Positions 3,731 through 21,589 of a stretch of 43,018 nucleotides of DNA are shown here, in pieces. The DNA lies in NCBI GenBank assembly GCA_016206145.1, contig JACQSA010000030.1:1-43018 (forward strand). The letters are read 5' to 3'. The notes under the pieces were generated by a model. It did no database searches. It saw nothing but the letters and a program-made list of their open reading frames with translations, and had not been told where the DNA came from. The number at the start of each line of letters is the position of its first letter. The stretch's first letter is position 1. This DNA is from Candidatus Uhrbacteria bacterium (GTDB taxonomy: Bacteria > Patescibacteriota > Patescibacteriia > JACQRZ01). The translations under genes were made by a program, and so were the position numbers.

Positions 3731-4213
3731 ATGATACAATCTTATTATGCAAAACTCTCGCTCTTCGCGTTACGTATAGCCATGGGATGGCTTATGTTTT
3801 ATGCGGGAATCACAAAAGTGCTTAATCCCACATGGTCAGCGGCAGGATATTTGTCTGGCGCAAAAACATTTCCTGAATTTTATACATGGCTTACAAGACC
3901 GGACATATTACCGATCACGAATGTTGTCAATGAATGGGCGTTAACCCTTTTGGGCGTTTCATTGATTCTTGGAGTATTTGTCCGCTTAAGTTCATTATGC
4001 GGGGCTGTTCTGATGATATTATACTATTTCCCAATACTGATATTTCCCACCATAAAAACAACAGCATTCATCGTTGATGAGCACATAATCTATGCTTTAG
4101 TTTTTTTATTTTTTGCCGCAGTCAGAGCAGGTCGTGTGTGGGGCTTAGAGAATTGGTGCGGGAAGCTCCCACTCTGTTCGAAATTTCCACGACTTCGAGC
4201 ATTGCTTGGATAA
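3731..4213 (+). CDS. DoxX family membrane protein
   Basis: 160 aa, four TM segments. The N-terminal LRIAMGWLMFYAGITKV pattern is typical of DoxX. Confidence 0.75.
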   Translation: MIQSYYAKLSLFALRIAMGWLMFYAGITKVLNPTWSAAGYLSGAKTFPEFYTWLTRPDILPITNVVNEWALTLLGVSLILGVFVRLSSLCGAVLMILYYFPILIFPTIKTTAFIVDEHIIYALVFLFFAAVRAGRVWGLENWCGKLPLCSKFPRLRALLG

Positions 4214-5441
4214 TATAGCACCACAGCATATGCGTTTGGGTATTAGAATAGTATTTTTTGCCAGCCTTGCAGCGCTCACTGTTATGGGCATTGGCAGAGG
4301 CGCATCTGCCCAACAAAATGAGCGAACAATAATATATGCATTTGTTCGCGCTGACTGTACACACTGTATAGAAGAAAAGAAGTTTTTTGAAGAGCTCAAA
4401 AAGGAGCTTCCTTTTCTTGAGATTTTTGTCTATGATCTCGCGGAAGAAAAAAATAACACACTTTTTTCTCAGGTTGCGACTCAGTACAAGCTTGTAAAAG
4501 GGACTCCGATCACACTCATTCATGGAATTCTGGTACAAGGGTTTGAAAGCGCACAAACCACGGGAGCAGTTTTTCGTGATCTTATCAAAAAAGGCGGAAT
4601 AAATCAGAGTTTTGAAGAAATTTTGAATGGAAACGCCACTGTGTTTGAAGGCGTGGGCGCTTCTTGCGATGCGGATAAAGTGTGTATCGACAAAACGTTT
4701 TTGGTTCGCGTGCCTTTGGTCGGTACGCAGATCGATGTCGGGTCTATGCCTCTAATCTTGCTCTCCGCTGTGCTTGGATTTATCGACGGGTTCAATCCCT
4801 GCGCTATGTGGGTGTTGGTTATGTTTCTTGTGATTCTTTCACAGGTCGGATCGCGTAAAAGGATGTTGCAATATGCGGGGTTATTTATACTCGCAGAAGC
4901 AGTGATGTATTATTTAATTTTGACCGTATGGATCACTGCGTGGGATTTTATTGCGTTGAATCGTATCACACTTCCTGCGGTGGGAATCCTTGCGATCGGA
5001 AGCGGCATATACTTTCTTTACAAGTTTATCAATTTCAAGCCGGTATGCAGTGTTGCAAGCTCAGATCAGCAAGAACGACTTAGCCATCGCGTTCGTGCAT
5101 TAGCGGTAAAACCTCTTACGTTTGGTGTTGTTCTTGGAATTTTAGGGCTCGCCTTCTCGGTAAATATTTTCGAATTTGCATGTTCCATCGGCATCCCGCA
5201 GACGTTTACTAAAATTATCGAACTCAATGCACCGCAATGGATTGTTCAGCAGGGTTATATGTTGGTCTATATCTTGATGTATATGGTTGACGATTTGATT
5301 GTTTTTGGAATTGCGCTTTATAGCATTTCAAAAATCGGATCTACATATACGTATGCCAAATGGTCTTCTCTTATCGGCGGAGTACTAATGTTGATTTTGG
5401 GTCTGCTTTTGTTATTTAGGCCAGAGACCCTGGTTTTTTGA
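4206..5441 (+). CDS. Signal-anchored thioredoxin/glutaredoxin-fold domain (CTHC) fused to a DsbD/CcdA-like polytopic membrane domain
   Basis: The track ORF starts at a TTG; ATG at 4230 (MRLGIRIVFF...) is the more likely start. CxxC = CTHC follows the signal/anchor. Membrane-embedded Cys residues sit in NPCAMW and FACSIG. Confidence 0.65.
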   Translation: MDNIAPQHMRLGIRIVFFASLAALTVMGIGRGASAQQNERTIIYAFVRADCTHCIEEKKFFEELKKELPFLEIFVYDLAEEKNNTLFSQVATQYKLVKGTPITLIHGILVQGFESAQTTGAVFRDLIKKGGINQSFEEILNGNATVFEGVGASCDADKVCIDKTFLVRVPLVGTQIDVGSMPLILLSAVLGFIDGFNPCAMWVLVMFLVILSQVGSRKRMLQYAGLFILAEAVMYYLILTVWITAWDFIALNRITLPAVGILAIGSGIYFLYKFINFKPVCSVASSDQQERLSHRVRALAVKPLTFGVVLGILGLAFSVNIFEFACSIGIPQTFTKIIELNAPQWIVQQGYMLVYILMYMVDDLIVFGIALYSISKIGSTYTYAKWSSLIGGVLMLILGLLLLFRPETLVF

Positions 5442-6594
5442 TATATGCGGCTAGCGCAATAATCGCTAGCTCTAATTCTGCCGGCACATCCCCAAACGAG
5501 AATCTCAGATACCCTTCTTTGCCAAAGGCCTTGCCGGGTACTGTTGCTATATTTGCTTTTTCGAGGAGTTCCATTGCAAACATTTCCGAAGATTGTCCTT
5601 CTCGCTCAAGAAGTGCGAGTGATATAAAAAGATAGAGGCTGGAAGAAGGGGTGAGCAGTTTTTTACCAAAAGATTCTTCAAATGTGCGGATTACTACATC
5701 GCGTCTCTCTTGCATTGCCATGCGTACGAGAGGGATAATCTCGCTCGCATTCTGTACCGCCGCCAAAGCTGCCCACTGGCTAATGCTTGAGGTGCCGGTG
5801 GTGCTTTGGCCTTGGAGCATGGTAAGCGTCTTGATCACTTCTTGCCGCGCGAATACAAACCCCACACGCCATCCCGTCATCGCGAAGTGTTTTGAGCAGC
5901 TTTGGATGATAACGGTGTTTTCTTGGAATTGGGGAAATGAGCCACAGGAGATAAATTTCTTTCCATCATATACAAGCCCACTATAGACTTCATCAGAAAT
6001 GACGATTATATTTTTTGTGTTTGCCCACTGTAGGATTTTTTCGATCTCTTCATGTGAATACAGTACGCCCGTAGGATTCGAGGCGTTGTTAAACATGAGG
6101 ATTTTTGTTTGAGGTGTCCATACGCGTTCAAGATCAGCGATAGATAATTTCCAGCCATTTGTTTCCTCGGTACTAATTTCTATAGGCACGCCCCCAAAGA
6201 GTTGCACCATGCTAGGGTATGATACCCAATATGGGGCAGGAATGAGCACTGCATCCCCGGGTTCAAGCAAGGCTTGGCATAGTGCGAAGATTCCGTACTT
6301 CCCTCCGCATGTCACAAGGCTTTGCGCTGCTGTGTAGGAAGTGGCGTATGTCGTATTCATCCATTCTGTCACGGCCGCTCGAAGCTCTGGTATGCCCGCG
6401 ACCGGGGGGTAATGTGTTTTTCCTTCTTGCATGGCTTTTTGTGCCGCCTCTACTACGAGCGGATGAGTATCTACCATTGGCTCCCCCGCGGCCAAATTAT
6501 ATACGCGCTGCCCTTTTGATTTTTTTTCAAGGGCAAGAGAATTCATCATCACTGATGCTGATGGAGCGACTTTCATGAAGGGTGAGAATTTCAT
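5416..6594 (-). CDS. Class I/II PLP-dependent aminotransferase (aspartate/aromatic type), last gene of the aro operon
   Basis: 392 aa. NASNPTG and SCSKHFAMTGWRVGF (Schiff-base Lys context). Confidence 0.9.
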   Translation of the reverse strand: MKFSPFMKVAPSASVMMNSLALEKKSKGQRVYNLAAGEPMVDTHPLVVEAAQKAMQEGKTHYPPVAGIPELRAAVTEWMNTTYATSYTAAQSLVTCGGKYGIFALCQALLEPGDAVLIPAPYWVSYPSMVQLFGGVPIEISTEETNGWKLSIADLERVWTPQTKILMFNNASNPTGVLYSHEEIEKILQWANTKNIIVISDEVYSGLVYDGKKFISCGSFPQFQENTVIIQSCSKHFAMTGWRVGFVFARQEVIKTLTMLQGQSTTGTSSISQWAALAAVQNASEIIPLVRMAMQERRDVVIRTFEESFGKKLLTPSSSLYLFISLALLEREGQSSEMFAMELLEKANIATVPGKAFGKEGYLRFSFGDVPAELELAIIALAAYIKKPGSLA

Positions 6595-6598
6595 GGGG

Positions 6599-6868
6599 CT
6601 AGGGTTTAGGAATTCTTTGGATACGTTTTGATTCTTTCAGAATAAGCCTCCAGAGCGATTTCGTAAATGCCTTAGAGAGACTGTACGTTTTTTCGAGTGA
6701 TGCGTGAAATGCCACGAGTTCTTTTTCGCGCGCAGTGTCGGTGATAGCTCGGCCGTGTTTCTTTTTTAGATCTCCGATCGCTTTTGCGATCGCAAAACGT
6801 TTTGCGAGAAGCTTGATAAGCCGTGCGTCTACTGCGTCGATTTTTTTTCTGAGTTTAATAATGGTCAT
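6599..6868 (-). CDS. Chorismate mutase, AroQ class (monofunctional)
   Basis: 89 aa all-helical. IDAVDARLIKLLAKRFAIAKAIGDLKK is typical of the CM_2 domain. Confidence 0.85.
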   Translation of the reverse strand: MTIIKLRKKIDAVDARLIKLLAKRFAIAKAIGDLKKKHGRAITDTAREKELVAFHASLEKTYSLSKAFTKSLWRLILKESKRIQRIPKP

Positions 6869-7433
6869 ATCTTTTGACCACGATAAACGTCGTAAGGTTT
6901 GGGTGTTGGTCTTGAATGCTCTTTTCTAGGATTTGGAGGCCATAGAGTGTGGCAGCGCGCGCAGGGGCGATGACAGCTGTTGTTGGTTGAAGTTTTCCGT
7001 CACGTAAATCTCTCGCGGCTTTGGCAGTATCTTCCCATGGAATGAGCTGCGCATGAGGTAATTCCGTTTTGATGTATTGTTCACATTGCGCGATTGCCTG
7101 AGGATGGGTTGCGATTGCAGTGACCGTATTTTTCACCATCCCTGGCATGGTAAGAAGGCATTGATGCACTTCCAACACTACTTCATCGACGAGAGTAAAA
7201 AGATGGCGTCCCATTGCCTCAAACGCCATTTGTACTAAACCACCTCTAGAATTGACGACAGGAAAAACTCCAAGTTCAATAGTTTCGTTTTCCAGAGCAG
7301 AGAGCACACCCTCCATATCAGTGCAGTATGCGATGTCAGGATCGAGCCCTTCACGATTTGCATAGAGCGTTCCCGCTTCCTCTGAGAAGGAGCCTTGATC
7401 GCCAGAGACGCCTATTTTTTTTCCTTGATTCAT
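6855..7433 (-). CDS. pheA: Prephenate dehydratase, catalytic domain only (no ACT domain)
   Basis: 192 aa. [10 protein letters not shown] at the N-terminus; the protein ends just after the NLTTF (TRF-like) motif. 4-nt overlap with aroC. Confidence 0.85.
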
Positions 7434-8536
7434 AATTTTTGATCCTTTATTCTTACATTTTGCGCCTTATGGCGAAGATAGTGATCCATGATTACCAGCG
7501 CACTCATCGCATCTACGATAGGGACAGCACGCGGCACTACACAGGGATCATGACGTCCGACCGCCTCTACGGTTGTGCGTTCTCCTTTGGCAGTGACAGT
7601 GTTTTGTTTTTTGCCAATCGTCGCCACTGGCTTGAATGCAACACGGAAATAGATCGTCTCTCCATTTGAGATTCCTCCAAGCACTCCCCCTGCATGATTT
7701 GTCTTTGTGCGAATCTGTCCCTTTTTATTTTTGTAGAATTCATCATTGTGTTGACTGCCCTTCAATTTTATTCCATCAAATCCTGATCCGATCTCAAACC
7801 CCTTTACCGCATTAATAGAAAGCATTGCCTTACCGAGATCTGCTGGTAATTTATCAAACACTGGCTCACCAAGTCCTGCTGGTACATTTTTGATTACACC
7901 CGTGATGGCTCCCCCGATAGAATCTTTTTCTCGTTTTACTTTTTCGATCAGCCGTATCATGCGCTTTGCCGCCTCTTCATCTGGACACCTCACTATATTT
8001 GCATCAATGAGTTTACGATTTACTTTTTCGTGATCCATAGATGTGTGTACAGAACCCACTTGTTCCACATAGCTTGTGAATGTTATCCCGAGTTTTTCTT
8101 TCAAAAATTTTTGAGCGATTGCGCCAGCGGCAACCCGTGCAAGCGTCTCTCGTGCAGATGCGCGGCCTGATCCGTGCCAATCTCGCAAGCCGTACTTTGC
8201 TAGATACGTATAATCCGCATGAGACGGGCGGAATAATTTTTTAAGTTCTTTATAATCTTGCGATTTTACATCCTCATTGTATGCAAGAAGGAGGATCGGA
8301 GTCCCCATTGTTACGCCACCACTCATCCCAGAGAGAATATGGATGCGATCTTTTTCGTTTCGGGGTGTAGTCAGCGCGCTTTGACCTGGTCGACGACGAT
8401 CAAGTTCGTGTTGGATATCTTCTTGTGAAATACGCAAGCCCGGAGGACAGCCGTCAACAATTACGCCGAGCCCGCCACCGTGAGATTCCCCGCAGGTTGT
8501 GATTCGAAAAAGTTGTCCAAAAGAATTTCCAGGCAT
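7430..8536 (-). CDS. aroC: Chorismate synthase
   Basis: 368 aa. N-terminal [15 protein letters not shown] and [13 protein letters not shown] motifs. Confidence 0.95.
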
Positions 8537-8546
8537 ATTCAGATTT

Positions 8547-9317
8547 TTAGATCAAATTTTCTAAATCTTCAAGGTCGCTAGAGAAAGGGTATTCTTGTTT
8601 CCACATCGCTGGCATTATAAAATAGAAGTATCGGGGATCTAGAAAAATTTTTCCTGTAGCTTTTTGGTATGCTTCATAGAGTTCATCAAAAATTTCCTCT
8701 TCATCTCGCCCTTCAAGTGTTTGTTTTGCAAACCACTCCTCAGCGCTCTTACAGTCTTCGTATGGGGCATTGATGATCTTATATCTCTTTTTCCATTCTT
8801 TTGGTAACAGGGTGTGAAAGTGTCCTACATGCATGGCTCGTTTACCGTCAGGATCATATGCTTTGTACAGATCCCAAAGTGTTTCCTCTTCATCTCGCCC
8901 TGCAAGTGTTTGTTTTGCAAAGAATGTCCTTGCTTTTGTGAGATCCTCGAGCGTGGCAGTAAATGAGCTTCCTTCGATATATTGTGTCTTGCGAAGCGCA
9001 TCCCAGTACTTCTTTATATTTACAGGTAATGCGTCCTGTCCAGAAGGAACGATCTTTTGGAATAAAAATCTTCGCACGTATCTTCCTAGAAGCTCAGCAA
9101 AATACCTATCATTTTTTCTGTCACTTGTTGCCTCATTTTCTTTCTTGATGCGATGCTCTAGAAATCGTACCATAGCAATGCCAAAACTGTGAGCACGTTC
9201 GGGTTGTCCCCTTTCAAATTCTAATAGGCGTTCCTCAATTTTCTTGCCGGGAACTTTCTTGTTTCGCAAATCTCTCTCAATCCCTTCGGGAGTTATTGGT
9301 TTTTGATTTCTATGCAT
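8547..9317 (-). CDS. Hypothetical protein with an internal ~55-aa duplication, embedded in the aro operon
   Basis: 256 aa. [22 protein letters not shown]...[10 protein letters not shown] is repeated as [22 protein letters not shown]...[10 protein letters not shown]. No family recognised. Confidence 0.6.
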
Positions 9318-9326
9318 ACCTAGACA

Positions 9327-10421
9327 TTATAATAATACTTTTTTTACCACGTTTTCTCTCACCGGATGTGCCCATGCCCCATCTTTCTTATATATACTGC
9401 CAATTTCGGAGAGAAGAATGTATAGTGGTTTATCCCCCTGCTTCTTTTTATCATACTTGGTTGCTGCAATAATATCACGAGGTTTCCACTTCCGTAAGGC
9501 CTTTGTGCTAACACCGGCGCTTTTCAAAATACCCTCCACCTGTTTGAGTGATTGGGTGGAAAGTATGCCAAGTTCATGTGAAATGCGCGCTTCGATAAGC
9601 ATACCGAGCCCAACTGCGATGCCATGCAGTATAGAGTAGTTGCTCACTTTTTCAATCGCATGTCCGATCGTATGCCCGAAGTTTAACACCATGCGTTCAC
9701 CTTGCTCTTTTTCATCCTTTTCTACAATTCTCGCTTTCTCTTGCAGAGACGCTCGGATAATGTTCCGTAAAGCAATTTCAGATCTTTGTTTCATAACCCC
9801 CCTGAGTGATTTTTGCATTTCAGGCCGCATCGTGAGGGATATTTTGACAGCTTCCATAAGACCTGAACGCCAATGATCGTCTGAGAGTGTTTTAAGATAG
9901 GAAGTATTTACGAGCACAGCCGAAGGTTGCCAAAATGTTCCGATCGTATTTTTTCCATACGTAGTATCAATACCCGTTTTTCCACCAATAGAACTATCTA
10001 GCATTGCAAGGAGGGTGGTTGGGATTTGTATATACGGTACACCACGTAGGTACGTTGATGCCACGAAGCCAGCCATGTCCCCCACTACCCCTCCTCCGAG
10101 CGCAATGATGAGTGTATTGCGACCACATTCTTTTTTAAGAAGACCATGATCAAGCAGCGTTTTTACACCTTCGTTTTTAAACGTCTCTCCGGCAGGAAGT
10201 GAAAAGAGATGTACGCGGTTGATTTTTTTTCTCAATTGAAAAGCTAAAGCATTGCCATAGAGTCGTCGCACGGTTTTATCGGTGATAATTGCAATGGTGT
10301 GATTATGGAAATTTTTTTGTATCATTCGTACTAGCGTAGACACGACGTCTGATCCGATACTGATATGGTATGAGCGTATCGGTAGAGATGGGATGCGGAT
10401 GGTGAGTGTATGTGTTTTCAT
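9327..10421 (-). CDS. aroB: 3-dehydroquinate synthase
   Basis: 364 aa. GGGVVGDMAGFVA nucleotide-binding motif and NFGHTIGHAIE metal site. Confidence 0.95.
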   Translation of the reverse strand: MKTHTLTIRIPSLPIRSYHISIGSDVVSTLVRMIQKNFHNHTIAIITDKTVRRLYGNALAFQLRKKINRVHLFSLPAGETFKNEGVKTLLDHGLLKKECGRNTLIIALGGGVVGDMAGFVASTYLRGVPYIQIPTTLLAMLDSSIGGKTGIDTTYGKNTIGTFWQPSAVLVNTSYLKTLSDDHWRSGLMEAVKISLTMRPEMQKSLRGVMKQRSEIALRNIIRASLQEKARIVEKDEKEQGERMVLNFGHTIGHAIEKVSNYSILHGIAVGLGMLIEARISHELGILSTQSLKQVEGILKSAGVSTKALRKWKPRDIIAATKYDKKKQGDKPLYILLSEIGSIYKKDGAWAHPVRENVVKKVLL

Positions 10422-11458
10422 TTTTTATATTCTGCTATTTTTCTGAGGAGAGTGTCGGTTTGTTCCCATGAGAGGCACGGATCTGTAATTGAAAGTCCGT
10501 CACGATCTATTGTCTGTGGTGTGAGTGATTCTACTTTTTGCGCACCACCTTTGATGAAGCTTTCGATCATAAATCCTTTTACTATTTGGGCTAGCTCAGG
10601 ATGTTCGTGCAGTGTTTCAAGTGTTTGATGTACCACCGCGATTTGCGCCCGGTAGTCTTTTACTCCGTTCACTTTGCAATTGTCGTGACTGGCATCTACG
10701 ATGATCGCTGGGTTATGAACACCACTTTTCTCTATGAGTTGTTTTGCTTGTTGGAGATGATCGTATGAGTATGTGGGGCCATTGACTCCACCTCGCAAGA
10801 CCAGATGCGCATATTCATTGCCTTGTGTTTCGATTTGGTGTCCGTCGAGTACCGCCGTGTGTGGATGCTGTGCTGCCACAATGCTATTTACACCAAGATC
10901 AAGAAGGCCGCTTGTAGGATTCTTCATCCCAACAGCGCAATCTACTGCTGATGCAAAAATTCTATGCTCTTGATCTTCAGTGCTACGCGCGCCAATAGCA
11001 ACCCATGAGAGGAGTTCGATAAAGCCGCGTGCGTTATGCGTGAAGACCGCTTCATCTGCGATCGCAAGCCCTGCTTCAATCATCTCCACCATAAGTTTAC
11101 GCGAGTATGTGATTCCCTGTTCTATATCAGGTTCTTTGAATGGATCTGGCTGATTGACAGGCCCTGTCCACCCTTTTGTCGTCCGCGGTTTTTGTATATA
11201 TACACGCAGAACGATTTTAACTGTATCCTGAATTTTGTTTTTTATAGCCACAAGTCGACGGGCATATTCAGTCACGGCGTCGGATGGCCACGCAGAACAA
11301 GGGCCTACAATGACTAAGAAGCGAGCGTCTTTACCTGAAAGAATGTTTTTTATATCCTGCCTGTCTTGAGCTATTTGTGTATGGCCACGCGCTGAAAGCG
11401 GATGCGTCATGATGATTTCTTCCGCTGATGGAAGTTTTTTTATTACCGATATGTTCAT
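10418..11458 (-). CDS. aroG: 3-deoxy-7-phosphoheptulonate (DAHP) synthase, class I (AroF/G/H type)
   Basis: 346 aa. FLVIVGPCS, KPRTTKGWTG and ASHDNC motifs. ATGA overlap with aroB. Confidence 0.9.
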   Translation of the reverse strand: MNISVIKKLPSAEEIIMTHPLSARGHTQIAQDRQDIKNILSGKDARFLVIVGPCSAWPSDAVTEYARRLVAIKNKIQDTVKIVLRVYIQKPRTTKGWTGPVNQPDPFKEPDIEQGITYSRKLMVEMIEAGLAIADEAVFTHNARGFIELLSWVAIGARSTEDQEHRIFASAVDCAVGMKNPTSGLLDLGVNSIVAAQHPHTAVLDGHQIETQGNEYAHLVLRGGVNGPTYSYDHLQQAKQLIEKSGVHNPAIIVDASHDNCKVNGVKDYRAQIAVVHQTLETLHEHPELAQIVKGFMIESFIKGGAQKVESLTPQTIDRDGLSITDPCLSWEQTDTLLRKIAEYKK

Positions 11459-11589
11459 TCCGTTAGAAGCAGATCGCGATCAGAAGATGCGAGCCTGCGT
11501 AATTATGAGTAAGTTTCTTTTCATAGTATGGTAATGAGTATGGCCGTTACAAGCGATCGCGGCTTCTAACGGGATTCATAAAACAGGGT
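11459..11589 (-). promoter_or_regulatory. Structured intergenic element between tyrA and the DAHP synthase gene
   Basis: A perfect 11-bp long-range pairing (11460-11470 with 11562-11572) is extended by GATCGC/GCGATC (11473-11478 with 11553-11558). The helix ends one nt from the DAHP synthase ATG. Confidence 0.4.
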
Positions 11590-12345
11590 TTAGGGGCTAG
11601 GGATTAGGGATTTTTCAATGGATGTTAGCGTGGTAAACAATTTTTTGCGGATCGCGCGTGTGTAGGGATTATAGTGTTGCATGTCAGAAAACAGTTGCCA
11701 AGAGTCATGTCGCACCATTGTTTGCATAGAAAGTAGAGATTCATAATCTGGCGTCGAGATTCTTTGCTGTCGCAAGCGCAGTGGCTCCAAGCTCCTTCCT
11801 ATGAGATGGACGAGGGCTTGCGATCGAGCCATCGCCTTATCGTGTTGCAGGGGCGTTGCATGAATAAGCACAAGTCCAAGAGTTTTGAGCATACTCTCAA
11901 ATACTTTCATTTGATGTGGCGTTGCTCGGAGTCTGTGCAGTACAATCTTTTTTCCCGCAACTCCATTCTTTCCAGAATCAGGTCCAAACAGAGGGTGCGT
12001 CGCAATGAGCGGCTGATTTTTGGGAAGGAGTTTTTTCATAAGTCTTGCGGGATGAAGTTTTACGGAGCACCCGTCAATGACGAGCGTGTGTTTTTGTAGA
12101 AGTGGCGCTATATCTCTACAGCAGGATTCTATCTGAGAAATCGGAACAAGGAGAAATAGCATATCTGTCTTGACGACTTCCTCGAGGTTGGCAAAGCGAA
12201 CACCTCGAGGAATTCTTGCAGAAACTCCTCGTTTGTCATGTACAAGGATAGTACCAAAGGAAGTAAGGCAAGAAGTCCATAGCTTGCCAAATCGTCCATA
12301 GCCGATAACTCCAATTGTGATTTTGTTTTTCATAGATTTTGTCAT
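11590..12345 (-). CDS. tyrA: Prephenate dehydrogenase
   Basis: 251 aa. Rossmann motif IGVIGYGRFG plus a PDH-type C-terminal half. An alternative ATG lies at 12333. Confidence 0.85.
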   Translation of the reverse strand: MTKSMKNKITIGVIGYGRFGKLWTSCLTSFGTILVHDKRGVSARIPRGVRFANLEEVVKTDMLFLLVPISQIESCCRDIAPLLQKHTLVIDGCSVKLHPARLMKKLLPKNQPLIATHPLFGPDSGKNGVAGKKIVLHRLRATPHQMKVFESMLKTLGLVLIHATPLQHDKAMARSQALVHLIGRSLEPLRLRQQRISTPDYESLLSMQTMVRHDSWQLFSDMQHYNPYTRAIRKKLFTTLTSIEKSLIPSP

Positions 12346-12359
12346 CCTAAACGTTCTTG

Positions 12360-12504
12360 TGTGTCATTCCCGAGGGACTCCGATGGCTTTGAGTCCGATA
12401 TTCATCGGACCATCGGAGGAACCGTGGCAATCCCGTCGCAGGTCACGAGTATTCTGAGAGATTTCATTAGCGTCGGGATCCCTCGTTTGCACTCGGGATG
12501 ACAG
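12360..12504. repeat. ~145-bp palindromic, highly structured element between aroE and tyrA
   Basis: Inverted terminal copies of GTCAT(T)CCCGAG..GGGA (12363-12377 vs 12479-12502). Nested hairpins CTCCGATG/CATCGGAG and GTCCGAT/ATCGGAC. A related TGTGTCATTCCGA lies at 13305-13317. Confidence 0.5.
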
Positions 12505-13321
12505 AATGAATTTTTTCTTTTATCTCTCCCGAGACTTCCTCTCCTGCCCACAAATGAATTTGCGCAAACGCCTGTTCAAAAAACATATCAATGCCACTTA
12601 TTGTTTTTGCTTCCGCTTTTTTCGCTTCTCGCAAGAGTCGTGTCTCCCGTGGGTTGTATACGCAATCAAATACAACTTGATGTGGTGAGAAGGAAAAATT
12701 TGTAAGTGGAGTCTCGGTGGTGTTTGGGTACATTCCTACAGACGTTGTGTTAATTATGATGTCAAAATTCTTATTTTCCACTTCATCTCGCGTCAGAATT
12801 TCTCCACCAAAAACATTTTTAAGAGCCAAAGCTTTTTCATGGGTACGGTTGAGATAGGATAAGCGCCCGTCGTTTTTTTTGACCATCCAGGCGGCAGCTT
12901 TTGCTGCTCCACCCGCACCAATGATAAGAACTCCCTTGTCTTTCATTGCAGTATCATCGAATGCTTTCTGAATACCAATGACATCTGTGTTGTACCCACG
13001 GAGCACACCGTCCTTATTCACGATCGTATTAACTGACCCTATCTCCTTCGCCTCCTCATCTATGTTGTCGAGATATGCCATGATAGTTTCTTTATGAGGA
13101 ATAGTCACAGCTGTTAGATGGATGGGTAGAGTGCGTATGGTTTGTACGATCGATGGAAGGTCGGTGCAAGGAAATGCAAGCATGATCGCATCTATTCCTA
13201 GGAGTTCATAGGCGTTCGTATGAAGGAGTGGACTGAGTGAATGCTCGAGAGGATAGCCGATCACGGCATTCAGTTTTGTTCTATTCGTTGGGGTCATATC
13301 GTTTTGTGTCATTCCGATCAA
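12467..13321 (-). CDS. aroE: Shikimate dehydrogenase
   Basis: 284 aa. NAVIGYPLEHSLSPLLHN and GAGGAAKA motifs. The true start is probably an internal ATG (13312 or 13297). The last ~12 codons (VIPSANEGSRR) are supplied by the palindromic element. Confidence 0.9.
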   Translation of the reverse strand: MIGMTQNDMTPTNRTKLNAVIGYPLEHSLSPLLHTNAYELLGIDAIMLAFPCTDLPSIVQTIRTLPIHLTAVTIPHKETIMAYLDNIDEEAKEIGSVNTIVNKDGVLRGYNTDVIGIQKAFDDTAMKDKGVLIIGAGGAAKAAAWMVKKNDGRLSYLNRTHEKALALKNVFGGEILTRDEVENKNFDIIINTTSVGMYPNTTETPLTNFSFSPHQVVFDCVYNPRETRLLREAKKAEAKTISGIDMFFEQAFAQIHLWAGEEVSGEIKEKIHSVIPSANEGSRR

Positions 13322-13757
13322 GATGATGCAAAAAGTTCATAAGAGCTTCAACAGCTTCTTCGTACCCTTTTTCTTTTTTCCCGCTGATTTGGGTAATACA
13401 GGCAGGCGCGAAGACAGATTGCGCGCGCCACGCCTCTCGCGCGTGTATATCAGAGAGGTGTACTTCTATGCATGGCAAGCGAGTATCGACTATGGCATCA
13501 TGAAGCGCGTAGCTATAATGCGCGAGCGCCCCTGGGTTGATAATGATGCCGCACGCATCAGGAGAATTTTTTTGGATCCAATCAATCAATTCACCTTCGT
13601 GATTTGATTGGAACGCACGGACGGTATACCCACGCATCGCTGCCCTCACTTCTACAAGTTTTTCTAGATCAGCAAGCGTGAGTGATCCGTATTGTTCCTG
13701 ATCACGTGAGCCAAGGAGATTGAGATTTGGCCCATGAATCAATAAGATTGTTTTCAT
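13281..13757 (-). CDS. aroQ: Type II 3-dehydroquinate dehydratase
   Basis: 158 aa. LLIHGPNLNLLGSRDQEQYG and NPGALAHYSYALHDA motifs. Confidence 0.95.
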   Translation of the reverse strand: MKTILLIHGPNLNLLGSRDQEQYGSLTLADLEKLVEVRAAMRGYTVRAFQSNHEGELIDWIQKNSPDACGIIINPGALAHYSYALHDAIVDTRLPCIEVHLSDIHAREAWRAQSVFAPACITQISGKKEKGYEEAVEALMNFLHHLDRNDTKRYDPNE

Positions 13758-14284
13758 AGCTTTGGTTTTATGGTTTGAACGAGATTTTCGACAACTTCAT
13801 CAAGAGAGCCATTGTTTTGTATGGTTTCGGCGGCAATCTTTTCATAGACACTCTGTCTTTCTTCCCATATTCGTTCGAATGTCTGGTATGGATTTTCATC
13901 TGGTGAGAAAAATGCTGGCTTTCCCCGCAGCATAATCCGTTCGTATACCATTTCTTGTGGGCTCGATATAAGAATTGCACGATGATTTTGAATGAGCTCT
14001 TGATTGCGAGGGTCCATCGGCGTCCCGCCGCCTAGCGCTATGAGGATTTGCTTCTCAGCTGAGAGAATCTTTGCCAGCGTCTCATGTTCAAGATCCCGAA
14101 ATATTTTTTCGCCTTGGGAAGCGTAGATTTCTCTGCATGTCAAAGAATTATCCGTGCGTTGCAAGTGAGTCTTTTCTATTTCTCTATCAAGATCGATAAA
14201 CGGCAATTGCAATTCTTTACTTGCGCGCTGCCCGATGGTGGATTTTCCTACATGCTTGAATCCTATAAGGATAATGTGGCCCAT
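13754..14284 (-). CDS. aroK: Shikimate kinase
   Basis: 176 aa. P-loop IGFKHVGKST and ALGGG motif. 4-nt overlap with aroQ. Confidence 0.9.
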   Translation of the reverse strand: MGHIILIGFKHVGKSTIGQRASKELQLPFIDLDREIEKTHLQRTDNSLTCREIYASQGEKIFRDLEHETLAKILSAEKQILIALGGGTPMDPRNQELIQNHRAILISSPQEMVYERIMLRGKPAFFSPDENPYQTFERIWEERQSVYEKIAAETIQNNGSLDEVVENLVQTIKPKL

Positions 14285-14316
14285 AAGATTAGCGTTTAAG
14301 TTACAGGTTGTAGTGA

Positions 14317-15624
14317 TTATTGAATTTTTATATCTGCTCCGAGATTTTCCATGAGCTCCACAAACTCAGGGAAAGTTTTTTGTATCCCCTCTGCCGTATC
14401 GATCGTGGTCTCTCCTTCTGCCTTGAGTCCTGCTATTGCAAGAGCCATAATTGTTCGATGGTCATTGTATCCATGCAAAGTCGCTCCTGTAAGCGCGCTT
14501 TTTGAGATAGTCATCCCGTCAGATCTCTCTTCAATTTGTCCTCCCATTTTTTTGAGCTCTGTAGCCATTGAATGAATTCGGTCCGTCTCTTTGAGTCGCG
14601 CATGCTTAACATTTGTAAGAATAGTCTTTCCTTGTGTCACTGTCCCTAGTACGGCAAGTGTTGGCACAAGGTCTGGCGTATCATTGCAGTCGATTGATAT
14701 ACCGTGCAATTGTGTGCCGCCTCGTATTATGAGTCGTCCACCATCCACCGTGATTTGAGCGCCCATTTCTTGCAGAATCTCAATAATTTTTTTATCCCCC
14801 TGTGGGTCTTCCATATCAAGGCCATTGACGGTTACTTCTCCTTCGCTGATAGCCGCTGCGGCTATTATGTATGAGGCTTGAGAGAAGTCAGCGGGGATTT
14901 TTTTTGTGAATTGGTGATACTGTTGCCCGCCTTTTACCTTGAATGTGTCTTTTGTGCCATCAACCTTCCACTCGTACGATATACCCTGCTCATGGAGCCA
15001 TCTCGTTGTCATTTCCACATATGGTCGTTCGTTGAGATTTTCTACAGTTAAAATCGAGTCATGCTCAGCAAACGGAAGTGCCATGAGTAATGCTGAAGTA
15101 AATTGCGACGTGATTCCCTCTACAGAAGTTTCGCCACCCTTGAGTGACCCACTGATTCGTATGGGATATGATTCATTCCCCTCGAGTGACGCGACACTCA
15201 TTCCAAGATTTGAGAGTGCGTGTATCAATGGAGCAAAGGGGCGCTTGCGCATCTGATCTCCACAATCAATAATTACAGGAGAGTCGACATCGGAGCGGAG
15301 TCCTAGGATTGGGAGTAGGAATCGTGATGTGATCCCTGAATCTCCCGTGTATATAGCTGTCTCCGAGGTATAGAGAGGTGTTCCGCCACTTGTGACTTCA
15401 AGGAGAAGAGTTCTATCAGAATTTTTTTTGTGTTGAATTGATGCGCCCAACGCGGAACATACGGCAATCGCAGATTGTGTATCTGTTGAGTCAAGAGCGT
15501 GGTCAATGGTGCTTGTGCCCTTTGCGAGAGTAGCAATAAATAGCGCGCGGATCGTCTGCGATTTGGATGGTGGTGGCGTCATTGTGCCACTGAGTTGTTT
15601 TGTATTTTTTATAATGAGATTCAT
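14317..15624 (-). CDS. aroA: 3-phosphoshikimate 1-carboxyvinyltransferase (EPSP synthase)
   Basis: The track ORF runs to a TTG at 15651 that lies inside a hairpin/U-tract. ATG at 15624 (MNLIIKNTKQLSGTMTPPPSKSQTIRAL) aligns with the usual AroA N-terminus (LPGSKSxSNRAL). Confidence 0.95.
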   Translation of the reverse strand: MNLIIKNTKQLSGTMTPPPSKSQTIRALFIATLAKGTSTIDHALDSTDTQSAIAVCSALGASIQHKKNSDRTLLLEVTSGGTPLYTSETAIYTGDSGITSRFLLPILGLRSDVDSPVIIDCGDQMRKRPFAPLIHALSNLGMSVASLEGNESYPIRISGSLKGGETSVEGITSQFTSALLMALPFAEHDSILTVENLNERPYVEMTTRWLHEQGISYEWKVDGTKDTFKVKGGQQYHQFTKKIPADFSQASYIIAAAAISEGEVTVNGLDMEDPQGDKKIIEILQEMGAQITVDGGRLIIRGGTQLHGISIDCNDTPDLVPTLAVLGTVTQGKTILTNVKHARLKETDRIHSMATELKKMGGQIEERSDGMTISKSALTGATLHGYNDHRTIMALAIAGLKAEGETTIDTAEGIQKTFPEFVELMENLGADIKIQ

Positions 15625-15647: not shown

Positions 15648-15672
15648 ACAAAAAAACCTCTTTTTCGAGGTT
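15648..15672 (-). terminator. Intrinsic terminator-like hairpin (AACCUC-GAAAAA-GAGGUU plus a U7 run) 24 nt upstream of the aroA ATG; the attenuator terminator
   Basis: Read on the minus strand: 6-bp stem, 6-nt loop, then a run of seven U. Its 5' arm can instead pair with an upstream segment (15711-15723). Confidence 0.6.
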
Positions 15673-15702
15673 CTTGTTGATTGACTGTATTGTGTATTCT
15701 TT

Positions 15703-15780
15703 TTATACGGCAACAAGGCCTCGATGCGCGAGGTTTACAAAATAAAATCCAAAAAAGAATTGTTTTGTTTGTTGACACAT
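15703..15780 (-). CDS. Candidate aro-operon leader peptide MCQQTKQFFFGFYFVNLAHRGLVAV
   Basis: 25 codons plus TAA, translated by hand from the minus strand. Six of seven consecutive codons (8-14) are Phe or Tyr. The ORF runs through attenuator segments 1 and 2. A perfect TATAAT lies 12 nt upstream of the ATG. Confidence 0.55.
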   Translation of the reverse strand: MCQQTKQFFFGFYFVNLAHRGLVAV

Positions 15781-15799
15781 AATATGTTTAGTATTATAG

Positions 15800-16405
15800 A
15801 TGAAACGATTTATGTCAAGAGCGAAAAAAATAAAACCTATTTACAGCAATAAGATCGCATCAATTCTTAAAGAAGGCGGAGTGGGAGTACTTCCTACCGA
15901 TACGCTCTATGGTATTGTCGGATCTACTCGGATTCCACAAGTAGTGAAGAGAATTTACGAGATTCGGAAGAGAGATCAAAAAAAACCATGCATTGTCCTT
16001 ATTGCCTCTCTAAAGAGCCTTGAAGAGTTTGGTATTCATATAAGTCCGGCACGAAAGAAAACATTGCAAAAACTATGGCCAGGACCTGTGAGCGTTATCT
16101 TTCCTTGTCGGTTAAAAAAATATCAATACTTGCATCGAGGCACAAAAACATTGGCTTTTCGCATGCCGGCAGACGAAAGGTTGAGAAAATTATTACAACG
16201 CACAGGTCCGCTTGTGGCTCCAAGCGCAAATATTGCGGGAAAACCTCCCGCACGCTCTCTGTTGCAGGCAAAGTTTTATTTCAAAAATGCTCTTGACTTT
16301 TATGTAGCTGGAGAAAAGCAAAAAAACCAATCCTCAACCCTAATTTCATTCAAGGGAAAAAAGATTGAAATAAAAAGAAAAGGCGTCAGTCAGATACCTT
16401 ATTGA
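15800..16405 (+). CDS. tsaC: L-threonylcarbamoyladenylate synthase (YrdC/TsaC domain)
   Basis: 201 aa. GGVGVLPTDTLYGIVG and VAPSANIAGKPP motifs. An alternative ATG lies at 15812. TTGACA-N17-TATAGA at 15772-15800 overlaps the first ATG. Confidence 0.85.
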   Translation: MKRFMSRAKKIKPIYSNKIASILKEGGVGVLPTDTLYGIVGSTRIPQVVKRIYEIRKRDQKKPCIVLIASLKSLEEFGIHISPARKKTLQKLWPGPVSVIFPCRLKKYQYLHRGTKTLAFRMPADERLRKLLQRTGPLVAPSANIAGKPPARSLLQAKFYFKNALDFYVAGEKQKNQSSTLISFKGKKIEIKRKGVSQIPY

Positions 16406-16543: not shown

Positions 16544-19500
16544 ATGCGTAGACGAACTTTTTTTGTTTTTAATATAATCACGATCATGAGTTTGGTTGTG
16601 AGCTTGGCACTACCGCCAAGTGCATTAGCGCAATTTGCACCTCCTCCTGGCGGTGGCGGCGGTTCTCCTCCTCCTGGCGGTGGATCTCCACCCCCTTCTG
16701 GTGGCAGTTTTGTGCCACCTCCATCAGGTGGCGGAACCGCTCCTTCAGGAAATTTTAGCGGTCCTCCCCCTGGTGGTGATCTCGGCGGAAGTCATCCAGG
16801 TGGTCAATCGAATTTAGGCGGAACACCCCCAAGCGGCGGACAGTCAAATCTTGGCGGTACCCCCCCTGGCGGTCAACAAGGTGGCCTTGATGGGCAGATG
16901 CCCGGAGGTAATCTCGGTGGCACACCCCCATCAGGCGGTTTGGGCGGGAATCCTCCGAGTGGACAACAAGGTCAGCAACCAGGAGGTCTTAGTGGACAAA
17001 CCCCAGGTGGACAATCAAATCTTGGAGGTACTCCTCCAACAGGTGGTCAGCAAGGACAACAAGGTCAACTCGGTCAAGGTAGCCAAAAGCCGGGTCAACA
17101 GGGCCAATCAGGACAATTAGGCAAACCAGGTGAAGGCGGTCAATTTCCAGGTCAAGGTGCGACACAAGGTCAATTCCCTGGTGGCGGCGCTACTGATAGC
17201 AAATTCCCCGGTCAGGGTGGACAGACGGGCTCTATCGGTACTACCCCCGGCGGTCAACAGCAAGGTGGTCAGCTAGGCAAACCTGGCGAAACAGGCCAGT
17301 TTCCTGGTGGCAGTGCTGCAGAAGGTAAATTCCCTGGACAAGGAGCAACTCAGGGAGAATTTCCAGGTGGTCCCGGCGGATCTCAGGGTCAAACAGGCAA
17401 ACCCGGCGAAACAGGCCAGTTTCCTGGACAAGGATCTACTGAAGGCCAGTTTCCCGGCAAAGGCGCAGGACAATCAGCATTCTCACAATTCAAGCTAGAG
17501 CCATGCGCTGAAGGTCAATCAAGCACAAGAGAACAGCCATGTATTTTCCGTCCCAAAGTTGAAGTGAAACAAGATTTTGCGCATACCTTAGAAGGAGAGA
17601 AAACCCGAGATTTGGGACAAAATGTGCTTGGCTCACTCGGGCAACTGGAACGCATAAAAGGCGTAGATAATGCTCAAAGACAAGCATTCGCAGAAAGAGG
17701 CGATAAACTCCAAGAATTACAGAAAAAAGCTCTCTCTGGAGATCAGGACGCAAAGGCTCAATTTGAAGCGGAAGCGAAAAGTTTTCAGTCAGACGTTGCT
17801 CAGGCAGTCCCTACCACAAAACTCGTTGATTCTTTTCTTAAAGATTTTTCAGATCAATCAAAGTCTGCGAAGAGTTTTTTTGGCGGACCGCAGCAACAGG
17901 GTCAATTCCCCGGACAAGGAACAACGCAAGGTAAATTCCCAGGTCAGGGCGCGACAGAAGGTAAATTTCCTGGAGGAGCACAGGCTCAAAAGGGCGGAAC
18001 GCAGGGTGCTACCCCCTTTCCTTCTTTTGATCAGGGATTTCAGTTTGCCGCAGATGCGCAGATTGGCCAGAAATATGCCCAGAAAGCAAAAACAGCTTGC
18101 GCAACAGATCAGGCATCTGAAGAGTGTACAGGGTTTATCAATAAGATGACCCAGTATAATAAATCTGATGAAATTAAATTCCAACAAGGTAACTTTAAAG
18201 ACTTGAGTGAAAGTCAAATTACCGCGAACTTAGAAAAAAATCAGGCAAAAGGCGAACTTCTTACGTCAGGATTTCAGAAGCTTCAAGAAAGTTTTGGTTT
18301 TAAGCCACCGGAAAAGGATAAAAAACTCGTAAGCAGCTTTAGCTCTTCGCTCGGCAAATCACTTGAAGGGCATGAACAAGGGAATCAAGCTGGTTTTGAA
18401 AAAGGCGCGAAAGAACTCGGCACCTTTAATTCCCAGCTCTCTGAGCGGTTTTCCTGGTTTGCACAAGGCGCTCCCCCCCCATCGTTTCAAATAAATGAGG
18501 AGATGCAGCGCACACAAGCGAACCTGTCCTTTAGTTCAAAGGCTCTTGAGCTCGCATCGAAATGGAAAGTGAAGGCGCCTACTTCGCTTGCAAAGACAAC
18601 TGAAGATGCGACAAAGTTGGTATCGGCAGTACAAACAGGCACTGAGCTAAATGATACCTCTCTTCTTGCTCCTGCATTTGATTATATGCAACAGAGCGGA
18701 GATAGTATGGAAACAGACATGGGTAAAATTTTCCAAGATGTTGGCAAAAAACAGTTTGGCCAGCATTTGGATACGCAGCGAGGAGAAGCGGGCGGAGTCT
18801 TTAAGGCAATGCAAGGATTTTCAAGTCAGATACCAAAAGCATTCCAAAAGACATGGAATGAAGGGTTGAAACAGGCACAAGCCTCTCTCACTACCGCTTC
18901 CAAAGCTGATAAAAAAGGAGACGCGCAAGCTGAAGAGGAAGGGTTATCGCAGAGTTTTGCTGCCGGAGCGAACCTTAAACGTTTGGCAGAAAAGTTTAAT
19001 GTGGACCTTCCTGAAGAAGTTGATAGTTTCTTTGAGAAACCAGAAGTACCAGGATTACAGGATAAATTCGATGATGATACAAAAGTAGGAGAAGCAGCGA
19101 GCGCAGTATTAGGTAAACTCCCTCCTGGTGCTGTCTTTGCGGCACAAAAAATGTTTGCTCAGATGGATCCTGCAACGTTATCTCTGATGGCACAAGCGCA
19201 CAATGAAAATCCTGATGCGTTACAGGAAGTGGTACAGCGCGGAGCATGGTTGCCGGAGAAAGCTCAGGTAGCTGTATTGAAGGGACAGATAGAAGTGCAG
19301 GATGTCGTCAATAAAGTTGAGGAAGAGATCGCTTCCATAGAAGAGGATCTGGAAGTCGAACTTAGTCCGGCGTTGAAACAAAAAGTTGAAGAAAAATTAG
19401 CGGATCTCTCTGATGATCTATTGCCAGAAGGGTCAAATGCAGCTGCGCAGGAATTACTTGGAGCTGTTCGGATACAACTTGCGGAAGTCGAAGATCCAAT

Positions 19501-20002
19501 AGAAGCAGAAGCATATCTTGAAACGCTTGTGGCAAATGTCGATCCTCTTCTTGAGTCTGCTGATGCGGAAAAATTTGAACTCGGCTATGTGCCGGCAAAG
19601 AATATTTCCGAAGATAATCCTCTCTACGATGACGGGATGGCATTGAAAGAAGGCGGAGACCTTAAGCCTCTTACCGGAAAGGATGGTAAGATCAATTACA
19701 CCAAGAATATTTCGAGAAATGAATATAAGAATTTCTTCAATGAGGTGGTTGACAAAAAGATTGCTCCTCCCAAGGGCCGTGGGACACCAAAAAAAGGCGA
19801 CGTACTTAAAGCCGGGTTGGCAGCGTTCGTCGGGTCTGATGTGCCAAAAGATCCAAACGAGCTTGTTGGGCTCGCAGAAACTTTTGGTGTGGAGAATATT
19901 AAGCCAGAGGATTTGGGTAAACCCGCAACTATTGGTGATTGCATAGAAATATTTGGCAGTTTCAAGCAGGAAACTCCCACACTTGTTACCGCAACAAAGT
20001 AA
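16544..20002 (+). CDS. Large secreted or anchored protein: N-terminal hydrophobic segment, ~450 aa of Gly/Pro/Gln low-complexity repeats, ~700-aa charged, probably helical C-terminal region
   Basis: 1152 aa. NLGGTPP occurs four times and an [QKE]FPG[QGK]G motif about eleven times. Near-identical 30-bp DNA units (e.g. 17277-17310 vs 17397-17430). Confidence 0.8.
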   Translation: MRRRTFFVFNIITIMSLVVSLALPPSALAQFAPPPGGGGGSPPPGGGSPPPSGGSFVPPPSGGGTAPSGNFSGPPPGGDLGGSHPGGQSNLGGTPPSGGQSNLGGTPPGGQQGGLDGQMPGGNLGGTPPSGGLGGNPPSGQQGQQPGGLSGQTPGGQSNLGGTPPTGGQQGQQGQLGQGSQKPGQQGQSGQLGKPGEGGQFPGQGATQGQFPGGGATDSKFPGQGGQTGSIGTTPGGQQQGGQLGKPGETGQFPGGSAAEGKFPGQGATQGEFPGGPGGSQGQTGKPGETGQFPGQGSTEGQFPGKGAGQSAFSQFKLEPCAEGQSSTREQPCIFRPKVEVKQDFAHTLEGEKTRDLGQNVLGSLGQLERIKGVDNAQRQAFAERGDKLQELQKKALSGDQDAKAQFEAEAKSFQSDVAQAVPTTKLVDSFLKDFSDQSKSAKSFFGGPQQQGQFPGQGTTQGKFPGQGATEGKFPGGAQAQKGGTQGATPFPSFDQGFQFAADAQIGQKYAQKAKTACATDQASEECTGFINKMTQYNKSDEIKFQQGNFKDLSESQITANLEKNQAKGELLTSGFQKLQESFGFKPPEKDKKLVSSFSSSLGKSLEGHEQGNQAGFEKGAKELGTFNSQLSERFSWFAQGAPPPSFQINEEMQRTQANLSFSSKALELASKWKVKAPTSLAKTTEDATKLVSAVQTGTELNDTSLLAPAFDYMQQSGDSMETDMGKIFQDVGKKQFGQHLDTQRGEAGGVFKAMQGFSSQIPKAFQKTWNEGLKQAQASLTTASKADKKGDAQAEEEGLSQSFAAGANLKRLAEKFNVDLPEEVDSFFEKPEVPGLQDKFDDDTKVGEAASAVLGKLPPGAVFAAQKMFAQMDPATLSLMAQAHNENPDALQEVVQRGAWLPEKAQVAVLKGQIEVQDVVNKVEEEIASIEEDLEVELSPALKQKVEEKLADLSDDLLPEGSNAAAQELLGAVRIQLAEVEDPIEAEAYLETLVANVDPLLESADAEKFELGYVPAKNISEDNPLYDDGMALKEGGDLKPLTGKDGKINYTKNISRNEYKNFFNEVVDKKIAPPKGRGTPKKGDVLKAGLAAFVGSDVPKDPNELVGLAETFGVENIKPEDLGKPATIGDCIEIFGSFKQETPTLVTATK

Positions 20003-21514: not shown

Positions 21515-21589
21515 GCGGGTATCGTATAATGGTTATTATGTCAGTTTTCCAAACTGAAAATGGGAGTTCGATTCTCCCTACCCGCTCCA
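21515..21589 (+). tRNA. tRNA-Gly (anticodon UCC), CCA encoded
   Basis: Cloverleaf folded by hand. Acceptor GCGGGTA/TACCCGC, anticodon arm TCAGT-TTTCCAA-ACTGA, T arm GGGAG-TTCGATT-CTCCC, discriminator U. Confidence 0.9.

Follow-up and report, generated by a model that had tools for sequence, protein, structure and literature searches.

A predicted ribosome-mediated attenuator upstream of the aromatic amino-acid operon in bacteria of the Candidate Phyla Radiation

Three described elements resemble the leader studied here. In the pheL-pheA attenuator of Escherichia coli and other Gammaproteobacteria, a short leader open reading frame (ORF) with Phe codons is combined with RNA segments that can form the helices 1:2, 2:3 and 3:4 and with an intrinsic terminator, and charged tRNA-Phe is sensed through the position of the ribosome (PMC11802643, PMC3082878). 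In the Corynebacterium glutamicum aroR-aroF attenuator, the leader peptide is reported to carry Phe-Tyr-Phe, and ribosome stalling under Phe limitation to raise read-through (Neshat et al., 2014, as summarised in PMC11802643 and PMC4046766). The uORFC-13-1 motif is a predicted upstream ORF (uORF) found exclusively before aroF, in Acholeplasma and in unassigned environmental sequences, with a consensus that includes a ribosome-binding site (RBS), at least one Phe codon (a U run) and -35 and -10 boxes, and with an intrinsic terminator adjacent (PMC8632094). Here we describe a leader that precedes aroA on a contig of 43,018 nt (JACQSA010000030.1, assembly GCA_016206145.1; the whole contig is referred to as the window) from Candidatus Uhrbacteria, an uncultivated member of the Patescibacteria group, that is, of the Candidate Phyla Radiation (CPR). 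Its sequence and its conservation in relatives indicate that this leader is probably a ribosome-mediated (leader-peptide) transcription attenuator, which would gate the shikimate and Phe/Tyr operon by sensing the charging of Phe and Tyr tRNAs, and of Trp tRNA in some lineages. An attenuator had been proposed at this position in an earlier reading of the window made from its letters alone (the sequence-only reading), and the analysis presented here supports that interpretation.

The leader lies on the minus strand, in the gap that separates aroA (ATG 15624) from a Sua5/YrdC-family gene transcribed divergently (plus strand, start 15800); its parts are collected in Table 1. The 25-codon ORF and its run FFFGFYF, in which six of the seven codons are aromatic, are read directly from the sequence, just as the sequence-only reading had given them, and segments 2 and 3 also lie where it had placed them. 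Segments 1 and 4 had been described with the right sequences but at wrong positions: the interval 15729-15736 for segment 1 takes in one extra A (15735-15729 is correct), and 15667-15672, given for segment 4, repeats part of segment 3 (15660-15655 is correct). The three proposed pairings were recovered when measured in the window, as a 1:2 helix of 5 bp (-6.1 kcal/mol in a local fold), a 2:3 helix of 6+7 bp (duplex -16.9 kcal/mol) and a 3:4 hairpin with a 6-bp core and A-U/G-U extensions (-11.4 kcal/mol). Segments 2 and 3 are separated by about 30 nt, and the U7 tract ends 25 nt before the aroA ATG. Because the 2:3 helix takes up the whole of the extended terminator 5' arm (13 of 13 nt), antiterminator and terminator are mutually exclusive.

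Table 1. Positions in the window of the leader elements and of the operon downstream.
Feature	Position	Strand	Description
-35 box TTGACA	15813..15818	minus	promoter scan
-10 box AATACT	15790..15795	minus	promoter scan; 17-nt spacer; TTGACA-17-AATACT scores 10/12
Leader ORF MCQQTKQFFFGFYFVNLAHRGLVAV	15703..15780	minus	25 codons + TAA; ATG 15780-15778, TAA 15705-15703
Regulatory codons 8-14	15739..15759	minus	UUC UUU UUU GGA UUU UAU UUU = F F F G F Y F
Segment 1, AACCUCG	15729..15735	minus	pairs with CGAGG of segment 2
Segment 2, U-CGAGG-C-CUUGUUG	15711..15724	minus	antiterminator 5' strand; ends 5 nt before leader stop codon; core CGAGGCCUUGUUG = 15723-15711
Segment 3, CAACAAG-AA-CCUCGA	15665..15679	minus	antiterminator 3' strand; 3' part AACCUC = terminator 5' arm; as CAACAAGAACCUCG, 15679-15666
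Segment 4 and U tract	15650..15660	minus	GAGGUU 15660-15655 runs into U7 15656-15650; terminator 3' arm and U run
12-gene operon	5416..15624	minus	putative target of leader; Pfam and NCBIfam assignments
Type-II chorismate mutase	6868-6599	minus	Pfam/NCBIfam

According to our model, transcription from the strong TTGACA promoter would begin at the leader AUG or a few nt before it, and a ribosome would translate the 25-codon leader. Where Phe- or Tyr-tRNA is scarce, this ribosome would stall in FFFGFYF, covering segment 1 and leaving segment 2 free to pair with segment 3 over about 13 bp; the terminator would then be blocked and RNA polymerase would read into aroA. Where charged tRNA is ample, the ribosome would continue to the stop codon, which lies 5 nt beyond segment 2, and would occlude that segment, segments 3 and 4 would pair to form the hairpin followed by U7, and transcription would end about 25 nt before aroA. 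We infer three steps of this scheme: translation of the ORF, which would be leaderless or independent of a Shine-Dalgarno (SD) motif, termination at the hairpin and U tract, and a response to aromatic aminoacyl-tRNA.

The evidence that carries this interpretation is comparative. Relatives were gathered by AroA scans of genomes and metagenomes, together with contig look-ups for close and distant AroA homologues. The same layout of promoter, aromatic ORF, alternative helices and terminator is present directly upstream of aroA in 18 further CPR leaders, all with F/Y or F/Y/W codons, as would be expected from the sequence-only reading, which had made conservation of the F/Y-run ORF in relatives a requirement. 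With the window they make up a typical set of 19 leaders with 18 distinct leader ORFs. The labels of the further loci are Uhrbacteria, Magasanikbacteria, Parcubacteria, Peregrinibacteria, Peribacteria and Patescibacteria (group), in addition to unlabelled metagenome contigs, and four close relatives with AroA identities of 76-87% have the leader peptides MNTRTQQFYFAYFFGNLAHRGLVAV, ...FYFAYFFVNLESRGLVAV, MNQRANQYFFSFYFANLRYRGLVCA and MNIRAQQFYFAYFFGNLAHRGLVAA. No short ORF with six or more aromatic codons in eight precedes aroA at any of 72 non-CPR loci. When the fetched DNA was scanned in full (1.035 Mb, both strands) and without bias for ATG-initiated ORFs of 12-35 codons with at least five aromatic codons in seven followed by a hairpin and a U run, 22 matches were obtained, 21 of them leaders and 1 a stray.

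Judged within the window alone, the leader elements do not stand out statistically. The 171-nt leader has a more stable fold than its shuffles (z = -2.8), the number of terminator-like structures in the window equals the shuffle expectation, and its six frames hold five aromatic runs of at least six codons in seven where 0.5 are expected; two of the other runs were inspected (32585, 32740) and lie out of frame within long genes. A functionless coincidence of a U-rich ORF with a weak hairpin would sit well with that terminator count and with the four other aromatic runs in other frames, but it is contradicted by the comparative data, in which the full arrangement is kept across at least five named CPR groups and is absent from the 72 controls, and we give it next to no credence. 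It is this conservation of the whole arrangement in relatives that places the leader well above chance.

Conservation of the ORF, and a strong promoter of its own, might also be expected of a small gene encoding a functional micropeptide, which the terminator would merely end; aromatic-rich peptides could be membrane-active. The pattern of conservation makes such a gene highly improbable. Between lineages the peptides share no sequence other than the aromatic run, they range in length from 16 to 28 residues and their N-terminal residues vary freely; the codons that are conserved at the C-terminal end fall on strands of the RNA helices (CGAGGCCUUGUUG, GUGAAGGC), and the element is found only directly before aroA.

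In the attenuator that we favour the ORF would have to be translated, and its promoter bears on how this could occur. The TTGAC of the -35 box is exact in 19 of 19 leaders, and the layout of one of them, L164 (L numbers denote loci), is identical to that of the window: TTGACA-17-AATACT-10 nt-ATG. A perfect TATAAT is also present in the window at 15798-15793, but its spacer to the -35 box is just 14 nt. From the end of the -10 box to the AUG there are 6-14 nt in 17 of the 19 leaders and 21 nt in L005 and L006. Judged from the position of the promoter, transcription in the window would start about 2-4 nt before the AUG. More generally, the conserved promoter-to-AUG spacing, which is the sole basis for this conclusion, implies a 5' untranslated region (UTR) of roughly 0-8 nt and therefore a leaderless or near-leaderless ORF. 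No SD-like motif was found before the leader ORF, which appears normal for this genome since such a motif precedes only 2 of 35 crude gene calls of the window. Leader peptides of Actinobacteria can be synthesised without an RBS, the precedent being C. glutamicum ilvBNC (Morbach, 2000, cited in PMC4046766). A regular-expression search for consensus promoters before the other genes of the window was uninformative.

The reading frame of the leader is under evident constraint. Frame 0 is the sole frame open in all 18 distinct ORFs, with 111 aromatic codons and no internal stops, as against 43 aromatic codons and 22 stops in frame +1 and 74 aromatic codons and 7 stops in frame +2. Aromatic positions swap among F, Y and W, with UUU, UUC, UAU, UAC and UGG all in use. 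These observations bear on whether the ORF might be no more than an incidental U-rich sequence in an attenuator that senses a protein, a tRNA or a ligand, such as a T-box-like element, a TRAP- or PyrR-like system or a riboswitch. Alternative terminator and antiterminator helices are common to every attenuator type, the ORF has no SD motif, and Trp_repressor-family genes lie near two related operons, all of which would be compatible with a sensor of this kind. We nevertheless consider one very unlikely, given the single open frame in 18 of 18 distinct ORFs, the in-frame UAU, UAC and UGG codons and the start codon at a fixed distance from the promoter. Nor does a leader of about 130 nt, whose segments 2 and 3 are joined by a non-conserved spacer, have room for a conserved aptamer-like domain, and apart from a resemblance to Phe_leader there is no T-box or other Rfam match: on the 351-nt region no T-box match was obtained at the gathering score or at E values up to 10, and Phe_leader was the only Rfam signal there.

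The aromatic run consists only of F and Y in the window and its close relatives. Trp codons occur inside the run in the L005, L006, L007, L061, L081 and L084 leaders, and the runs seen in W-containing leaders are FGYYFWNF, WFYFYNF, YSFWFFF, FYFYFW and FW..FYGFF. The idea that W codons of the leader track trp genes of the operon finds no support in L179, which has W and no trp genes, or in L180, where a trp operon is adjacent and the leader has no W.

Both structures of the proposed switch recur throughout the typical set. A hairpin followed by a U run is present in 19 of 19 leaders (-8 to -21 kcal/mol), as is a 2:3 duplex (-10 to -24 kcal/mol) that takes up all or most of the terminator 5' arm; for L082 the duplex was verified separately. 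The pairings 2:3 and 3:4, whose retention in relatives the sequence-only reading had anticipated, are thus kept, and they are realised in a second class with different helix sequences and with some compensatory changes. Class A, comprising the window, Uhrbacteria, Magasanikbacteria, Parcubacteria and others, has CCGAGG..CUUGUUG / CAACAAG-AA-CCUCGG / GAGGUU, and class B, from Peregrinibacteria and Peribacteria, has CUUCA / GUGAAGGC / GCCUUCAC / GAAGGC. Since a plain MAFFT alignment misaligned the terminator 3' arm owing to the variable loops, covariation was scored on a structure-anchored block alignment, in which helix strands were kept verbatim, their order was verified and the blocks were joined by artificial constant linkers. 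On this alignment the terminator is 80% paired with both-side changes at 5 of 8 pairs, and the antiterminator is 87% paired with both-side changes at 10 of 13 pairs (33 cells); for either helix none of 500 shuffles reached the observed covariation score, and slid registers dropped to 21-48% paired. RNAalifold picks the 2:3 helix unaided from the plain MAFFT alignments. Individual compensatory events include a C-G to U-A change in the L166 antiterminator, with the matching segment 4 base changed to U, a swap of G-C and C-G between L002 and L007 at a pair that forms part of the antiterminator but not of the terminator, and a terminator U-A in L005 and L006 as against C-G in L007. The 4-bp core of the 1:2 helix is paired in 16 of 16 scorable sequences.

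The placement of the ORF relative to these helices is also conserved. The distance from the final aromatic codon of the run to segment 1 is 3-5 nt, except in class B, where segment 1 overlaps the last Phe codon; segment 2a starts about 13 nt past that final aromatic codon. In 17 of the 19 leaders the stop codon is found within the segment 3-pairing part of segment 2, or at most about 5 nt 3' of it, and in the other two (L084 and L166) 1-2 nt 5' of it. With this placement, a terminating ribosome would cover segment 2. In folds of naked RNA extending to the segment 3 stage the antiterminator is the minimum free energy (MFE) structure of 12 of 18 leaders, and at full length the terminator state is the MFE structure of 11 of 18. 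The two states differ by no more than 3.6 kcal/mol in 13 of 18 leaders, and this closeness in energy fits a poised switch. Crude ribosome-masking folds gave mixed results, as their outcome depends on the footprint assumed, and direct helix measurements were used instead.

A number of observations weigh against this interpretation. The evidence for an attenuator is computational throughout, and the block alignment is structure-guided. Class A helices are mostly conserved and not covarying, with 2 compensatory pairs and a covariation term of about 0, and most of the covariation counted is between classes A and B, which may be two realisations of one design and not the product of substitutions within a single lineage. 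With a covariance model of class A, neither the class B leaders nor those of L061 and L180 were detected, and the window gave no additional copy; because the model does not link class B, much of the covariation is better read as one design in different sequences. The 1:2 helix has just 4-6 bp (-3 to -11 kcal/mol) with weak covariation. The size of the ribosome footprint is general knowledge, and a ribosome of normal footprint would reach segment 1 only if it stalled at the last aromatic codon or the one before it. The geometry of the trp/phe/his attenuators that the sequence-only reading had recognised here fits the leaders, which differ from the textbook cases in this restriction to the last codons and in a 1:2 helix far weaker than 2:3. 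Naked-RNA thermodynamics are mixed as to the ribosome-free default of the leader and do not decide for the read-through default that the much stronger 2:3 helix might suggest. There are also CPR aroA loci that have no leader, namely the Gracilibacteria locus L171/172 and L175; the leader is likewise absent at L177/178, labelled Deltaproteobacteria. Finally, the terminator stem of the window is short, with its 6-bp core, and L180 keeps the promoter and an aromatic leader ORF (FFFFYF) with no recognisable intrinsic terminator.

These last two points could be taken to mean that the aromatic uORF and the associated structures act post-transcriptionally, on initiation of aroA translation, on mRNA stability or through Rho-dependent polarity, and that the hairpin and U tract are not decisive. 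In L180 a long-range helix ends 5 nt before the aroA AUG, and the distance from U tract to aroA varies among leaders from 9 to 147 nt. Against this stand the GC-containing hairpin that leads directly into a U run in all 19 typical leaders, with compensatory changes in 5 of 8 stem pairs, and the antiterminator, which specifically uses up the terminator 5' arm. Moreover, hairpin-and-U terminators of the same type end ordinary CPR genes (the upstream genes in L002, L171 and L175). We therefore judge post-transcriptional action unlikely and retain transcription attenuation as the preferred explanation.

Some of the loci mentioned above have features of their own. In L180, which encodes an AroA-AroK fusion, 250 nt (L180:9751-10000) lie between a trp operon and the aro operon, which run in opposite directions from there. 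The trp operon is complete (trpE, G, D, C, F-B, A) and includes a Trp_repressor-family gene, and the two divergent -35 boxes together make up a perfect palindrome and possible operator, TGTCAA-GAT-TTGACA. On the aro side the FFFFYF ORF starts 6 nt after TATGAT, and the helix that ends 5 nt before the aroA AUG is formed by GUUCUCGC/GCGAGAAC; on the trp side there is an SD-like AGGAG and no leader ORF. At L171:1412-1500 and in L172 the upstream gyrB is followed by a terminator, CAACAAGAGCCUCGAAUGGGGCUCUUUUUUUU, that is very similar to class A segments 3 and 4 and may be an attenuator remnant or a coincidence. At L081:2360-2500 (= L179:9860-10000) an insert of some 147 nt separates aroA from the U tract of the attenuator; it contains two more GC-rich hairpins, GUCAUUCCCGCC..GGCGGGAAUC-like and GGAUCCCCGA..UCGGGGAU, and could be a small inserted repeat element.

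The operon that the leader would control comprises 12 genes, all on the same strand and overlapping or separated by short gaps, in the order aroA, aroK, aroQ, aroE, tyrA, type-I 3-deoxy-D-arabino-heptulosonate 7-phosphate (DAHP) synthase, aroB, a 256-aa ORF, aroC, prephenate dehydratase (PDT), chorismate mutase (CM) and a class-I/II aminotransferase. It encodes the complete pathway to Phe and Tyr and contains no trp genes, and for this reason the F/Y-only leader codons of the window fit the operon products. Its prephenate dehydratase, the tenth gene, is a PDT domain only, of 192 aa, with no ACT feedback domain, as the sequence-only reading had observed. No second leader-like element was found in the two operon-internal gaps of 120-130 nt, before tyrA and before the DAHP synthase gene. 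The 256-aa ORF (8547-9317, minus), between aroB and aroC, has no match in Pfam, NCBIfam or PDB sequences; the otherwise similar L179 operon has no gene at this position, and the seven shikimate steps as well as CM, PDT, TyrA and the aminotransferase are all assigned without it.

Elsewhere in the window, the match of a 185-aa ORF (21720-22277, plus) to the Mutator-family transposase profile PF00872 is confined to the first half (positions 31-176 of 379); the ORF adjoins a tRNA-Gly (21515-21589) and is probably the remnant of a truncated insertion sequence. Two ORFs on the plus strand, of 1152 aa (16544-20002) and 411 aa (4206-5441), have no Pfam match at E <= 0.1, and one of 790 aa on the minus strand (40358-42730) has none at E <= 0.001.

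CPR organisms are usually regarded as auxotrophic symbionts. To our knowledge little is known about how their genes are regulated, the organisms being uncultivated and their genomes having few recognisable regulators. The leaders described here suggest that CPR lineages that keep aromatic amino-acid biosynthesis also regulate the aro operon, by letting the ribosome read tRNA charging, and that attenuation in these bacteria probably operates on leaderless, SD-free transcripts. A bolder and more tentative possibility is that the leaders form a CPR-wide family of leaderless attenuators, in genomes devoid of SD motifs, whose AUG stands no more than a few nt from the 5' end. Read-through would then perhaps be the default, with termination needing a ribosome on segment 2, and classes A and B, whose sequences cannot be aligned, and the L180 form without a terminator would represent repeated re-invention or re-wiring. 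If true, this would mean tight coupling of transcription and translation, with a complete aromatic pathway under the control of tRNA charging. The element is compact, about 170 bp, and could be carried into reporter or cell-free systems for work on coupling, leaderless initiation and intrinsic termination with CPR sequences. As an added cis-regulatory RNA family it could also improve the annotation of CPR genomes.

Neither Rfam nor the open-access literature was found to describe the element, which agrees with the view of the sequence-only reading that the leader was undescribed, and the open-access literature likewise yielded no account of attenuation, or of leader peptides, for the CPR, for Patescibacteria or for Parcubacteria. 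As far as we could find, therefore, the leaders provide the first evidence, drawn from genome comparison, for ribosome-mediated attenuation in CPR bacteria. In a local scan the window matches the Rfam family Phe_leader (RF01859) over the full length of the model, but its 32.8 bits (E = 5e-4) fall short of the 55 bits set as the gathering score. Neither the window nor any of 17 CPR loci has a match to an Rfam family at the gathering score of that family.

With pheL-pheA the CPR element has in common a short leader ORF with a Phe run, the alternative helices 2:3 and 3:4 with a candidate 1:2 helix, and an intrinsic terminator. It differs in preceding aroA and a 12-gene operon rather than pheA alone, PDT being only the tenth gene, in mixing Phe with Tyr and elsewhere Trp codons, in having no SD motif and almost no 5' UTR, in its much weaker 1:2 helix and in its host, which belongs to the CPR and not to the Gammaproteobacteria. 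Closest in biological role is the aroR-aroF attenuator of C. glutamicum: both have a mixed-aromatic leader peptide before a shikimate-pathway operon. The first gene in C. glutamicum is the DAHP synthase gene aroF and not aroA, and aroR has 3 aromatic codons as against 4-7 in the CPR leaders; the phylum is unrelated. The uORFC-13-1 motif is similar in its U-run Phe uORF, promoter boxes and adjacent terminator before a shikimate-pathway gene, but it is tied to aroF and has an RBS in its consensus. The CPR leaders, in contrast, stand before aroA, have no RBS and carry a long run of F, Y and W codons.

The general logic is also that of E. coli trpL, and L084 and L166 likewise put the stop codon between segments 1 and 2. 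In the E. coli trp system a strong 1:2 helix leads to termination when the leader is untranslated, whereas the 1:2 helix of the CPR leaders is far weaker than their own 2:3 helix. Of the features of attenuators of the trp/phe/his type, the leader has an ORF with codons for the pathway products, an intrinsic terminator, an exclusive antiterminator and the corresponding geometry. The element is probably its own case of a textbook mechanism and is not a member of Phe_leader, and the advance lies in its distribution and context, not in the principle.

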